Of a DNA stretch of 64,000 nt, positions 41,147-47,583 are shown piece by piece; position 1 is the stretch's first letter, and each line of letters starts with the position of its first letter. The notes below the pieces were generated by a model, which saw only the letters and a program-made list of their open reading frames with translations, had not been told where the DNA came from and did not search any database. The stretch is taken from the NCBI GenBank assembly GCA_963752475.1, contig CAVVYR010000029.1:128001-192000 (forward strand), read 5' to 3'. Origin of the DNA: an uncultured Chloroflexia bacterium. GTDB lineage: Bacteria; Chloroflexota; Limnocylindria; Limnocylindrales; CSP1-4. Both the position numbers and the translations under genes were made by a program.

Positions 41147-41174
41147 TTGACAGCGTGCCCTCCGCTGCTACCCT
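41147..41174 (+). promoter_or_regulatory. Sigma70-type promoter of the microcompartment operon
   Basis: Perfect TTGACA (41147-41152), 16-nt spacer, extended TGn-TACCCT (41169-41174). Confidence 0.7.
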
Positions 41175-41176
41175 AC

Positions 41177-41209
41177 GCACATATGAGCAGTGGTTTGCAC
41201 GAATGAGCA
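41177..41209. promoter_or_regulatory. Paired operator candidate for the SorC/DeoR regulator
   Basis: GCACATATGAGCA (41177) and GCACGAATGAGCA (41197): near-palindromic and exactly 20 bp apart, directly downstream of the -10 and overlapping the start codon. Confidence 0.65.
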
Positions 41210-42156
41210 TCTCGGCCTCGGCGGGTGATACGCGCCTGATGCTTCGGGCTGCCCAGCTCTACTACCACGCGGACCTGACCCAGGACGACATCGGCAGGCG
41301 CCTGGGCGTGAGTCGCTTCAAGGTCGGCCGCCTGCTCGACCGCGCCCTGAAGGAGCAGGCGGTGCGCATCGAGATCGTCCATCCCGCCGCCCGCCTGGTA
41401 GCCCTCGAAGACGCGCTCGTCGAGCGCTTCGGGCTGACCGACGCGGTGGTCGTGGATGTCCCGGACACAGAAGATGAGCAGCTGGCCCGCGAGCGCGTGG
41501 CCGATGCCGCCGCGGATCACCTCGCCGCCATCGCCCCCACCGGCGTCATCGGCGTCTCCTGGGGCCGCACCATGATCGAGCTGGCGGCTCGGCTGCAGCC
41601 CGGCTGGACCAGCGCCGACCAGATCGTCCAGCTCAACGGCGCCATCAGCCGCTCCGCGCGGCCCACGCGCTACCAGGAGGTCGTCGAGCGCTTCGGCACC
41701 ACCACCGGTGCCGCCATCCAGTTGATGCCGGCACCCGCCATCGTGGGCACGCCGGAGCTGCGAGCGGCGTTGGAGGCCGACCCGTCGGTCGCCGTCCCGC
41801 TCAAGGCCGCGCGGAAGGCCGGCAGCGCCGTCTTCGGGATGGGCGTCATGGGCACCGACTCGGTCCACGTCACCTCGGGCTACCTCGACAAGCGCGACCA
41901 GCGCCGCCTGCAGAAGGCCGGCGCCGTGGGCGACGTGCTCGGTCGCTTCATCACCATCGACGGCCGGATCGCCCTGCCCTCGCTCGACGAGCGCACGGTC
42001 GGCCTGCCTCTCACCAAGCTCTGCGGCAAGCGCACCGTGGGCCTGGCCGCCGGTCCCGGCCGCGGCCCGGTCGCCCTCGGGGCCCTGCGTGCCGCCTGCA
42101 TGAAGACGTTCGTGACCGATGAGGCCACGGCTACATGGGTGCTCGCACATGACTGA
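41203..42156 (+). CDS. Sugar-binding transcriptional regulator (SorC/DeoR family)
   Basis: AQLYYHADLTQDDIGRRLGVSRFKVGRLL HTH; GVSWGRT; GAVGDVLGRF; FVTDE. Confidence 0.93.
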   Translation: MSISASAGDTRLMLRAAQLYYHADLTQDDIGRRLGVSRFKVGRLLDRALKEQAVRIEIVHPAARLVALEDALVERFGLTDAVVVDVPDTEDEQLARERVADAAADHLAAIAPTGVIGVSWGRTMIELAARLQPGWTSADQIVQLNGAISRSARPTRYQEVVERFGTTTGAAIQLMPAPAIVGTPELRAALEADPSVAVPLKAARKAGSAVFGMGVMGTDSVHVTSGYLDKRDQRRLQKAGAVGDVLGRFITIDGRIALPSLDERTVGLPLTKLCGKRTVGLAAGPGRGPVALGALRAACMKTFVTDEATATWVLAHD

Positions 42157-42730
42157 TCCACGCCGACCCTCGGCCGACGAGGTCCGCGCGCTCGTACAGC
42201 GCATCGTCGACCAGACGCTCGACTCGGAGCCCCCGGCCGCCCCCGCCGGCGACGGCCGGATCGCAGTGGCCATCGCCGGCGACCACGGTGGCTGGCGCAT
42301 GAAGGACGCCATCGGCAGGTGGCTCGAGGAGCACGGCTATGCCGTACGGGACTGTGGCACGGACAGCGACGACGCGGTCGACTATCCCGACTTCGCTCAG
42401 GCCGTGGCCCAGCTGGTCGCGGATGGATCGTGCACGTGGGGCATCGTCGTCGATGGCGCGGGTATCGGCTCGGCCATGGCCGCCAACAAGGTGCCCGGCG
42501 TGCGCGCCGCCAACTGCCACGACATCTCCTCGGCTCGCAACAGCCGCGAACACAACTACGCCAACGTCCTGACGCTCGGGTCCGGCTTCCTGGGCAACGC
42601 CCTGGCACTCCAGATCGTCGAGACCTGGCTGGACACCGAGTGGGGCGCGGAACGTCACGGGCGCCGCGTCGAGAAGATCAGCGCGATCGAACACTCCTAC
42701 ACCGGCAGCCCCGGGGGAAAGGACCGATGA
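42149..42730 (+). CDS. rpiB: Ribose-5-phosphate isomerase B family with N-terminal encapsulation-peptide-like helix
   Basis: [49 protein letters not shown]. Confidence 0.92.
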
Positions 42731-46425: not shown

Positions 46426-47018
46426 TGCCGCCTGCCGCCATCGAACCCGCGCTGGGGCTGCTGGAGCTGGAGTCGATCGCCGCCGGCATCGAAGCCGGCG
46501 ACGCCATGGTCAAGCGCGCACCCGTGGAGGTGCTGCGCGCCGGGACCGTACACCCGGGCAAGTACCTCGTGCTCGTCGGTGGCGACGTGGCCGACGTGCA
46601 GGAGGCCCTCGAGGCGGGCACGGAGACCGGCGGGCTGGCCGTCCGTGACACGACCTTCCTGGCCAACATCCATCCCGATGTCGTCGAGGGCGTGCGCGGG
46701 CGCCGCCAGGTCGCACAGGACGAAGCGCTCGGGATCATCGAGACGGCCACGGTGCCGGCGATCATCCGCGCCGCTGATGCCGGCCTGAAGGGCGCACAGG
46801 TTCGGCTCCTGGAGCTCAACCTCGCCGACGACCTCGGAGGCAAGGGCTACCTGCTCTTTGACGGCTCGGTCACGGACGTGGAGGCAGCCGTCGAGATCGG
46901 CACCGCCGCGGTCGGTGAGGCGCGCGGCCTGCACGCCCGGGTCATCGCCCAGCTACACACCGAGATGGCTCATGAGCTCGCCGCCGACGGCCGCTTTGCC
47001 TCGCGGGTGGCCGAGTAG
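46425..47018 (+). CDS. Tandem BMC-T shell protein (PduT-like)
   Basis: ALGLLELESIAAGIEAGDAMVK, VHPGKYLVLVGGDVADV; ALGIIET, AADAGLK, LGGKGY. Confidence 0.93.
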   Translation: MPPAAIEPALGLLELESIAAGIEAGDAMVKRAPVEVLRAGTVHPGKYLVLVGGDVADVQEALEAGTETGGLAVRDTTFLANIHPDVVEGVRGRRQVAQDEALGIIETATVPAIIRAADAGLKGAQVRLLELNLADDLGGKGYLLFDGSVTDVEAAVEIGTAAVGEARGLHARVIAQLHTEMAHELAADGRFASRVAE

Positions 47019-47020
47019 CC

Positions 47021-47311
47021 ATGCAGCTCGCACGCGTCACCGGCACGGTCGTGGCCAGCACCAAGGTGCCCGGGCTGGAGGGCGTCAAGCTGCTCATCAT
47101 CCAGCCCCTGGACCGCTGGCAGCAGCCCAAGGGTGAGCCGGTCGTGGCCGCCGACGCGGTGCACATGGCCGGTCCCGGGGAGCTGGTCTACTTCGTAGCC
47201 TCGCGCGAGGCGGCGCAGGCACTCGAAGAGACGTTCGTGCCCGTCGACCACGCCATCGTGGGCATCGTCGACGAGGTCACCATGCTGCCGGGCGCGGAGG
47301 GCGGCACATGA
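47021..47311 (+). CDS. BMC-P vertex protein (EutN/CcmL family)
   Basis: [28 protein letters not shown]. Confidence 0.94.
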   Translation: MQLARVTGTVVASTKVPGLEGVKLLIIQPLDRWQQPKGEPVVAADAVHMAGPGELVYFVASREAAQALEETFVPVDHAIVGIVDEVTMLPGAEGGT

Positions 47312-47583
47312 AGCTTGGGAAGGTCGTGGGCAACGTCGTGTCCACCATCAACACGCCGCACTTCGAACAGCGCACGCTGCTGCTGGTCGATCTGGTGGGT
47401 CCGGACGGGGCGCCGTCGGGCGGATACCAGATCGCCGTCGACAGCATCGGCGCTGGCGCCGGCGAGACCGTCCTGTTGCTCGACGAGGGCAACGGCGCAC
47501 GCCAGGTGCTCGACGCTCCGGGCGCCCCCATCCGCACGGTCGTCATCGGCATCGTGGACGAGGTCAGCAGCGACAGCGTCTGA
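47308..47583 (+). CDS. BMC-P vertex protein (EutN/CcmL family)
   Basis: GKVVGNVVST, AVDSIGAGAGETVL, EGNGAR, VIGIVD. Confidence 0.94.
   Translation: MKLGKVVGNVVSTINTPHFEQRTLLLVDLVGPDGAPSGGYQIAVDSIGAGAGETVLLLDEGNGARQVLDAPGAPIRTVVIGIVDEVSSDSV

Follow-up and report, generated by a model that had tools for sequence, protein, structure and literature searches.

What does a compact run of shell and enzyme genes in an uncultured Chloroflexia bacterium encode, and is it of a kind that has already been described? The genes lie on contig CAVVYR010000029.1 (assembly GCA_963752475.1), of which we analysed positions 128,001 to 192,000 of the forward strand, a stretch of 64,000 nucleotides that we call the window and to which all coordinates below refer. 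A first-pass annotation, made from the letters of the DNA, had described the run at 41147-47583 as a bacterial microcompartment (BMC) operon of the sugar-phosphate-utilising (SPU) class. Comparing the sequences with known proteins and related loci, we put the probability at roughly 80% that this is indeed an SPU-type metabolosome operon, with a compact architecture that fits the catalogued subtype SPU3. The operon most likely encodes an organelle that breaks down DNA-derived deoxyribose phosphate while trapping toxic acetaldehyde; its type is widespread and has a place in the catalogue already, and the locus is not a new kind of system.

The earliest notice of SPU loci dates from 2014 (PMC4207490); they were expanded in 2021 to more than 280 loci from 26 phyla in seven subtypes (Sutter et al., PMC8217296) and were curated in 2024 to a set of 206 (Dwyer, Sutter and Kerfeld, PMC11585597). 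As described in these papers and in a 2025 preprint (PMC12747264), deoxyribose-5-phosphate aldolase (DERA) and aldehyde dehydrogenase (AldDH) are common to all SPU subtypes. Further hallmarks of the class, as published, are an N-terminal extension of ~70 residues on all SPU DERAs (PMC11585597, section 7), at least three genes for pentameric vertex proteins, BMC-P, in all SPU loci (PMC11585597, PMC8217296), and Asp in place of Cys66 in all SPU ribose-5-phosphate isomerase (RPI) homologues (PMC11585597, section 8). The window locus has a DERA extension of 73 residues, an Asp/Lys/Lys aldolase site, an RPI in which the Cys is Asp and which bears an N-terminal peptide, and three BMC-P genes. The class proposed by the first-pass annotation is thus borne out by the DERA extension, the Asp of the RpiB-like protein, the BMC-P triplet and the N-terminal helices of the cargo, all of which match the published hallmarks. 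The chemistry that it had proposed, in which deoxyribose-5-phosphate yields glyceraldehyde-3-phosphate and acetaldehyde and the acetaldehyde is turned into acetyl-CoA, is that of the published SPU model.

The open reading frames (ORFs) of the window, together with Pfam and NCBIfam matches, confirm a ten-gene operon of ~6.4 kb at 41147-47583 on the + strand, with every gene that had been named found in the order given: a SorC/DeoR-type regulator, an RpiB-like protein, DERA, BMC-Tdp, BMC-H, BMC-P, AldDH, BMC-Ts, BMC-P and BMC-P. PF00936 domains in three genes and PF03319 domains in another three, all within 4 kb, mark it as a BMC locus. The nine junctions measure, in order, -8, -4, -14, +63, +58, +13, -1, +2 and -4 nt, and it is this tightness that points to a single translationally coupled operon. 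The neighbour upstream is a chromate-transporter gene that runs divergently, and the one downstream a CPBP-protease gene (47643-48455, - strand) that converges on the operon. A longer reading of the regulator, from 40993, overlaps the chromate-transporter gene; alignment with relatives makes the ATG at 41203 the most likely start. That of the RpiB-like gene is most likely at 42149, and that of DERA is at 42727, overlapping the RpiB stop codon as ATGA. A generic terminator scan returned three terminator-like sites, all on the - strand and inside genes, and none convincing after the last gene; folding of the region 3' of that gene gave z = -0.8. The host genome is high-GC (~69% GC), and its nearest relatives in our comparison are Chloroflexota metagenome-assembled genomes (MAGs).

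The signature enzyme, DERA (42727..43617, + strand, 296 aa), scores 269.5 bits against TIGR00126 deoC (cutoff 117), and its best solved relative is 8qps (E 7e-76), the match starting at query residue 74 of a translation begun one codon before the ATG. In the alignment with solved DERAs, the Asp motif and both Lys motifs of a class I aldolase site are preserved. The CoA-acylating AldDH, of PduP/EutE type (44971..46425, +, 484 aa), scores 618 bits against PRK15398 (cutoff 403) and matches the CoA-acylating 5jfl best among solved structures (E 2.9e-128), with the Cys-containing motif aligned. Judged by these alignments, DERA and AldDH both retain their catalytic residues. The N-terminal 15-mer of AldDH has the highest helical hydrophobic moment of its 469 windows (rank 1/469), as expected of an encapsulation-type helix, and each of the three cargo proteins has a predicted N-terminal helix or extension of the BMC-targeting kind. 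In DERA, where the N-terminal 15-mer ranks 37/281, the 73-residue extension consists of a helix followed by a CxxCxxxCxxxC motif, and is conserved in relatives. An AlphaFold2 (AF2) model (mean predicted local distance difference test score, pLDDT, 79.3) has the helix at residues 4-25 at low confidence and the barrel at good confidence from about residue 74; the extension after the first helix falls below a pLDDT of 60, so that the fold of the cysteine motif cannot be read from it.

The four-cysteine motif deserves a remark of its own. It lies in the part of DERA encoded at 42727-42945, and SPU6-type loci have CxxxCx5CxxxC in its stead. At least four cysteines occur in the 75 residues before the DERA barrel in 26 of the 38 sequences examined, including those of loci L001-L009, L014, L017, L018 and L021 of the survey described below; L010, L011, L031, L035, L049 and the fused RPI-DERA forms have it in part or not at all. 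The main text of PMC11585597 is silent on the motif: the words 'zinc', 'iron-sulfur' and 'Fe-S' have no occurrences there, and 'cysteine' is used only for RPI and in the methods. We suggest that the motif may be a metal or disulfide site, and count it as a modest novelty.

The third cargo protein is the RpiB-like one (42149..42730, +, 193 aa; PF02502, E 1.5e-50), whose PF02502 domain begins ~40 residues after the start. The N-terminal 15-mer before it has the top helical hydrophobic moment of 178 windows, so this protein, too, is predicted to carry an encapsulation-type amphipathic helix. In the alignment with the RpiB structure 3ph3 (E 9e-42), the CGTG of the structure faces DGAG, with Asp at the position of the catalytic Cys and, two residues on, Ala where the structures have Thr; the DGAGIGS motif is invariant in 23/23 aligned RpiB-like sequences. 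Since the catalytic Cys is replaced by Asp, the protein is probably a non-isomerase core or scaffold subunit. Thus the rpiB gene of the first-pass annotation is present, while a working ribose-5-phosphate isomerase, which that name implies, is not what the 23 sequences point to.

We weighed whether the RpiB-like protein might nonetheless be a working enzyme, acting on a second sugar phosphate, whether in addition to deoxyribose-5-phosphate or in its place, or might bind and present the substrate to DERA. Across 23 RPI sequences 44 columns are invariant, including the active-site motifs DHGG, DGAGIGS, REHN and RH..R, when a pure scaffold would be expected to drift. The Asp, moreover, could itself serve as the base, as Glu does in the Mycobacterium tuberculosis enzyme according to section 10 of PMC11585597. 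No transketolase or other enzyme that would link pentose phosphates to DERA was found in the locus with Pfam and NCBIfam models, however, and deoxyribose-5-phosphate has no 2-hydroxyl and cannot undergo aldose-ketose isomerisation. The purified SPU6 pair described in section 8 of PMC11585597 tells against it as well: that DERA was active on deoxyribose-5-phosphate and formed a complex with its RPI, the RPI showed negligible ribose-5-phosphate isomerase activity, and, from sections 8 and 10, the complex left DERA kinetics unchanged. This work also means that 'poorly characterised', as the first-pass annotation called the SPU class, is partly out of date, an SPU6 DERA and RPI having been purified and assayed (PMC11585597, section 8). 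A complex prediction for the window's DERA and RpiB-like protein, from 23-row alignments, gave a score of 0.01 against a mark of 0.32 and has no weight for or against their binding. On balance we regard a catalytic or substrate-presenting role as unlikely, and retain the non-isomerase partner of DERA as the probable one.

Around these enzymes the locus provides a predicted shell set of one BMC-H, one BMC-Ts, one gated BMC-Tdp and three BMC-P. The BMC-Tdp (43604..44227, +, 207 aa) is by its matches a double-stacking, gated-pore shell trimer of CcmP-like kind: CcmP itself (4ht5) is matched at E 6.5e-84, HO-5816 of H. ochraceum (5v74) at E 5e-67 and CsoS1D (3f56) at E 1e-52. Its IERYYG aligns with the IERLYG of CcmP, which keeps the Glu-Arg pair that we take to be the pore gate of such proteins. 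As an equivalog of the beta-carboxysome CcmP it was rejected, the score of 336.7 bits against the NCBIfam CcmP model (NF053796) lying under the cutoff of 340 and the locus containing no RuBisCO or ccm genes; the predicted likeness is in fold and pore motif only. The BMC-H (44291..44611, +, 106 aa; PF00936, E 4e-30), the main hexameric shell protein, is closest among natural proteins of solved structure to the H. ochraceum hexamer HO-5815 (5djb, E 2e-41). The pentameric vertex proteins are encoded at 44670..44957 (paralog 1, +, 95 aa; PF03319, E 5.3e-29), 47021..47311 (paralog 2, +, 96 aa; E 5.9e-26) and 47308..47583 (paralog 3, +, 91 aa; E 3.6e-23), the last of these being the last gene of the operon. 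The first shares 40 identical residues with the second and 34 with the third (of 95 and 91), and over all pairs 29-40 of 91-95 residues are identical.

The BMC-Ts (46425..47018, +, 197 aa), a PduT-like single-layer tandem-domain trimer with two PF00936 domains (E 9.5e-37), matches PduT (3n79) at E 6e-40, and it has no cysteines at all. The PduT loop SPGKF, whose pore position we take to be an Fe-S ligand, aligns with HPGKY. Among the Ts ORFs of 21 relatives, 13 matched the loop pattern, with His at the pore position in seven, Gln in five and Cys in one; that one (L072) is a Spirochaetes locus with another gene order. The pore loop is consistent with the absence of PduS, to which we return below.

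These matches raise a further question, which is whether the shell serves the enzymes encoded beside it. The shell of the H. ochraceum (HO) BMC resembles that of the window in its BMC-H (HO-5815) and Tdp (HO-5816), at the E values given above, and in having a BMC-P triplet, and the window BMC-Ts matches 5dih ('microcompartments protein'; presumably HO BMC-T1) at E 1e-21. These matches and the shared triplet make the HO shell a good structural template for the one predicted here. Satellite loci with EutABC and EutL are reported for HO, SPU3 and SPU6 BMCs in section 10 of PMC8217296. One could therefore imagine that the window's shell also or mainly serves an aldehyde pathway encoded elsewhere, such as an ethanolamine 'EUT module' satellite, with DERA one cargo among others; its proteins are close to those of a BMC itself of no known function, and our view is limited to 64 kb of the genome. 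Yet no eut or further shell genes occur among the 59 window ORFs scanned, and translational coupling ties the genes for DERA, RpiB and AldDH, which bear extensions of the targeting type, to those of the shell. We therefore hold such a satellite pathway to be quite improbable. An HO-type BMC was likewise rejected for the window, where DERA and RPI sit in the main locus, whereas the HO main locus is described as having no DERA (PMC8217296, section 8).

To place the locus among its relatives, we scanned one genome per species with the DERA as query, which confirmed 579 of 600 matched stretches; the best 80 were kept and compared with the ten window proteins by tblastn. The full order RpiB-DERA-Tdp-H-P-AldDH-Ts-P-P recurs in 14 of the 80 loci (L001, L002, L004-L010, L012, L042, L071, L077 and L078), which come from Chloroflexota, Acidimicrobiia and Acidobacteriota. 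Seven more agree with the window order as far as genes were found, most of them being cut by a contig end, and three (L021, L034 and L040) have the window order with a 1.8-kb insert. In 22 loci the genes stand in another order and the AldDH has no more than 29-34% identity with that of the window; these include L065, whose genome is listed as SPU6 in Dataset S1. Five loci have other orders, and the remaining 29 lack shell genes and have DERA, in some cases with RpiB. RPI and DERA are joined in one reading frame in six loci (L039, L050, L056, L066, L077 and L078), of which L077 and L078 have the other seven genes in the window order. A SorC-type regulator gene stands 5' of the operon in nine loci, six of them with the complete order; its product is 54-86% identical to the regulator of the window in L002, L003, L005, L006, L008, L012 and L071 and 37-38% in L056 and L066.

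Only L012, the closest relative, with a DERA 88% identical, has the same genes around the operon as the window does. Elsewhere among the same-order loci the flanks differ from one another, and no extended operon or conserved neighbour emerged from 118 flank ORFs (103 from the 14 same-order loci and 15 from four others); because the flanks differ, the nine-gene unit behaves as a self-contained module. L012 itself matches DERA, Tdp and AldDH in several pieces (L012:10001-13710) and has a P-type ATPase gene in three ORFs (L012:15450-18199), and these splits look like frameshifts from MAG assembly errors, not real pseudogenes. The insert of the three longer loci (L021:8911-10595, L034:14998-16684 and L040:12783-14452; Ardenticatenaceae and Promineifilaceae) consists of two genes between AldDH and BMC-Ts, namely an ORF of 175-179 aa with no Pfam match and a response-regulator receiver fused to a ParA/MinD-type ATPase, which could be an organelle-positioning system; the window operon is without this insert.

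Which SPU subtype does this architecture represent? As published, SPU1, SPU4 and SPU7 are without Tdp and have a phosphotransacylase (PTAC; PMC11585597, PMC8217296), the Tdp is CcmP-like in SPU2 and SPU3 (PMC11585597), and in SPU6 alone is the AldDH peptide at the C-terminus, the other subtypes having it at the N-terminus (PMC11585597). Section 6 of PMC11585597 reports an RPI-DERA fusion in 20 SPU3 loci, and the SPU3 list in its Dataset S1 consists of high-GC Actinobacteria, Chloroflexi and Acidobacteria genomes. The window locus has a Tdp of CcmP-like kind, an AldDH peptide at the N-terminus and the gene order of the fused RPI-DERA loci, and it is without PTAC, all of which fits SPU3. It shares with SPU3, further, the DERA extension, the RPI Asp, the Ts, H and BMC-P triplet and the host phyla. 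It differs from the fused SPU3 loci in that RPI and DERA are separate genes, from SPU3 as published in having no PduS homologue, and in a SorC-type regulator that is unmentioned in the main texts of PMC8217296 and PMC11585597.

SPU6 was also considered and was rejected. The SPU6 locus of Chloroflexi bacterium GWB2_54_36 does resemble the window's, with RPI and DERA adjacent at the operon head, the DERA extension, the RPI peptide and Asp, three BMC-P, one Tdp, a regulator of its own and no PTAC. The AldDHs of SPU6-architecture loci, however, those built like L065 from Chloroflexi bacterium RBG_16_51_16, are only 29-34% identical to the window's. In a tree of 32 AldDH rows, from which L065, L012 and L077 were left out by coverage and stop-codon filters, such loci split from all others with 100/100 support, and the window falls in the non-SPU6 clade with L008, L001 and L002 (97/97). 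The AldDH of SPU6 is of an EUT3-related clade and has its peptide at the C-terminus (PMC11585597), where the window's is N-terminal; the gene order P-AldDH-H ... Tdp ... P-P of SPU6-architecture loci, in which no BMC-Ts match was found, differs from that of the window; and their regulator is of the GntR/UTRA kind (L017; PMC11585597, section 8), where the window has SorC.

Because the locus is minimal and has its own regulator, the first-pass annotation had considered that it may be a distinct subtype. In favour of a distinct, uncatalogued SPU subtype with minimal enzymes and its own SorC regulator, the locus has no gene for PduS, PTAC, alcohol dehydrogenase, triose-phosphate isomerase (TPI) or class II aldolase, when PduS is listed for all subtypes but SPU6 (PMC11585597), and 'SorC' and 'DeoR' have no occurrences in the main text of that paper. 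The architecture is common, however, with the same nine-gene order in 14 of 80 loci and a SorC regulator upstream in nine; L077 and L078 share both that order and the RPI-DERA fusion, which PMC11585597 assigns to SPU3; and the phyla listed for SPU3 in Dataset S1 are those of the same-order loci. Nor do the compact loci form one clade in the AldDH tree, where three changes are needed and they are interleaved with fused and insert-bearing loci. A regulator of its own does not set the locus apart either, given the nine SorC-bearing relatives and the GntR/UTRA regulator of the SPU6 model locus (PMC11585597, section 8). The suggested distinct subtype therefore does not hold up, and we give it little credence beside SPU3, whose features the locus fits. 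The module's regulators have been swapped repeatedly: L010 has a TetR gene directly upstream (8797-9450), and the SPU6-type L017 has one of the GntR/UTRA kind downstream (15753-16538).

PduS homologues are reported in all subtypes but SPU6 (PMC11585597, section 6), and the absence of PduS from the window is thus either an exception among SPU3 loci or a variant common in that subtype. It is part of a wider lack. PTAC, Fe-type alcohol dehydrogenase, PduS (PF01512-type), TPI and class II aldolase were found neither among the 59 window ORFs scanned nor among the 103 ORFs that flank the 14 same-order loci. For SPU loci that lack PTAC, PMC11585597 proposes that acetyl-CoA leaves through the Tdp pore; the window locus fits this idea, and would also need an exchange of NAD(H). 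The complete lack of cofactor-recycling genes, together with the cysteine-free BMC-Ts, is a further modest novelty of this locus.

How might such an operon be switched on? A TTGACA hexamer lies at 41147-41152, the position at which the first-pass annotation began the operon, and is followed after a 16-nt spacer by a -10 element, TACCCT, at 41169-41174 (+ strand). The promoter that this annotation had named is putative and was not called by a generic scan, which returned no promoter-like sites in all; it is conserved, in that TTGACA with a TAnnnT -10 element at 16-17 nt spacing precedes the regulator gene in the window and in the 7/7 relatives read (L002, L003, L005, L006, L008, L012 and L071). 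Between the -10 element and the regulator start codon, and overlapping that codon, is the pattern TGAGC-N7-TGCAC-N3-TGAGCAT (41184..41210, +), a putative operator of the SorC-type regulator that we draw from its conservation. It occurs once in the 64-kb window, with 0.00 occurrences expected from 100 shuffles, and is exact in 4 of the 80 loci (L002, L003, L008 and L012), always at the start of the regulator gene. At the same position L005, L006 and L071 have a palindrome, CACATGAGC-N8-GCTCAGATGTG. An operator just downstream of the promoter suggests autorepression, so that the regulator probably represses its own operon at this conserved site.

The regulator (41203..42156, +, 317 aa), with a helix-turn-helix and a sugar-phosphate-binding domain (PF04198 Sugar-bind, E 2.5e-49), has as its best solved relative the Bacillus subtilis deoxyribonucleoside regulator DeoR (8r7y, E 1.9e-37 over 301 residues). 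Its best NCBIfam model is likewise B. subtilis-type DeoR (NF053881), at 215.2 bits against a cutoff of 420. In the VQLKGG motif of B. subtilis DeoR, the Lys, which we take to be the Schiff-base lysine that binds deoxyribose-5-phosphate covalently, is replaced by Asn in the window regulator and in 8/8 locus-linked relatives (L002, L003, L005, L006, L008, L071, L056 and L066). The score below the cutoff and the Asn for Lys argue against a simple DeoR orthologue, and by sequence the regulator is a member of the SorC/DeoR subfamily and not a DeoR equivalog. Together, the BMC-linked regulators with VQLNG look like a distinct subgroup.

The comparison with B. subtilis DeoR is instructive nonetheless. 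DeoR represses a DERA operon and is released by deoxyribose-5-phosphate, bound covalently, as set out in the introduction of PMC11229326, and tetramers of SorC repressors occupy bipartite operators close to the promoter (PMC11229326). Like the regulator considered here, DeoR controls an operon that contains DERA (dra-nupC-pdp). The window operator, in contrast, is unrelated in sequence to that of DeoR and has its place downstream of the -10 element instead of at -60 to -21, and the window regulator, unlike DeoR, is the first gene of the operon that it probably controls; it also differs, as described, in its score under the equivalog cutoff and in having Asn for the DeoR Lys in VQLKGG. The conservation of promoter and operator across relatives and the Asn-type SorC regulators are again new to a modest degree.

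Where would the substrate come from? Genes for a pyrimidine-nucleoside phosphorylase and a PNP-family phosphorylase lie 1-4 kb downstream of the operon in L001, L002 and L008, and a cytosine/purine permease gene directly 3' of it in L009. The link to nucleosides is thus supported in relatives, and for the window would hold by analogy with them. The sole such candidate in the window is a PNP_UDP_1 gene (17602-18867) ~23 kb upstream, adjoining F420 genes. It has an N-terminal extension of ~190 aa and stands beside CofD and F420-glutamyl ligase genes (17602-21374 in all), and the F420 genes fit a Chloroflexota or Actinomycetota host.

Putting these parts together, we propose the following course of events. 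Deoxyribose-5-phosphate, made in the cytosol from deoxynucleosides, would enter the shell and be split there by DERA, upon which glyceraldehyde-3-phosphate would leave for glycolysis and acetaldehyde would stay. AldDH would turn the trapped acetaldehyde into acetyl-CoA, using NAD+ and CoA, while the RpiB-like protein would probably be DERA's partner in organising the core, with no isomerase role. Because the locus has no PTAC, alcohol dehydrogenase or PduS and its BMC-Ts is free of cysteines, acetyl-CoA, CoA and NAD(H) would probably be exchanged via the large gated Tdp pore. Transcription would proceed from the conserved promoter and would probably be repressed by the SorC/DeoR-type regulator at the conserved operator of its own operon, until relieved by a sugar phosphate, most likely deoxyribose-5-phosphate.

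Another way to view the cassette is as a 'cofactor-open' minimal metabolosome with one aldehyde former, one aldehyde consumer and a pseudo-enzyme as organiser. Such an organelle would recycle no NAD+ or CoA internally and would depend on the Tdp for exchange; the cysteine motif would add a metal or redox site, and the Asn-type SorC would sense the substrate non-covalently at the operator described here. This more detailed picture we offer tentatively, as less likely than not.

Several observations weigh against our assignment and the function that we attach to it. Neither a deoxyribose kinase nor a phosphopentomutase or pyrimidine-nucleoside phosphorylase gene lies next to the operon in the 64-kb window, and the PduS expected of SPU3 is missing from both the window and the flanks of the 14 same-order loci. 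The filing under SPU3 is indirect, made by features and gene order and not by catalogue hidden Markov models or locus clustering (BMC Caller). The only published SPU enzymology is that of an SPU6 DERA and RPI (PMC11585597), and SPU6-architecture DERAs, where aligned, are 49-54% identical to that of the window. The invariant active-site residues of the RpiB-like protein argue that a ligand is still bound, which undercuts a pure scaffold role. The regulator falls short of the DeoR equivalog cutoff (215 against 420 bits), and if the VQLKGG Lys is the covalent binder of deoxyribose-5-phosphate, then the effector of the window regulator, or the mode in which it is bound, differs. Shell assembly, encapsulation, substrate and induction are, for the window locus, all things that we infer from the sequence.

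Elsewhere in the window we noted genes unrelated to the BMC operon. Near it are a cluster for the arginine deiminase pathway (arginine deiminase, ornithine carbamoyltransferase and an amino-acid-kinase family gene), a polyphosphate kinase and a Ppx/GppA phosphatase (54561-58134, - strand; 59418-61529, +; and 51404-52351, -). At 28967-30910 (-) a 647-aa ORF with two electron-transfer flavoprotein (ETF) domains and an ETF alpha FAD-binding domain appears to be a fused beta-alpha electron-transfer flavoprotein, and adjoins a gene for ETF-quinone oxidoreductase.

SPU organelles, which rank with the most widespread types of BMC, are presumed to recycle sugar from DNA in soils and sediments, and one SPU6 enzyme pair represents all the SPU enzymes studied so far. 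As a clean instance, ten genes long, of the smallest SPU architecture that is complete, and with a shell near the solved one of H. ochraceum, the window locus is a convenient template. The questions to which it lends itself are how a metabolosome works without cofactor-recycling enzymes, what role an inactive RPI plays, and how the operon is switched on, for the last of which the conserved promoter-operator and the Asn-type SorC regulator are concrete reagents.

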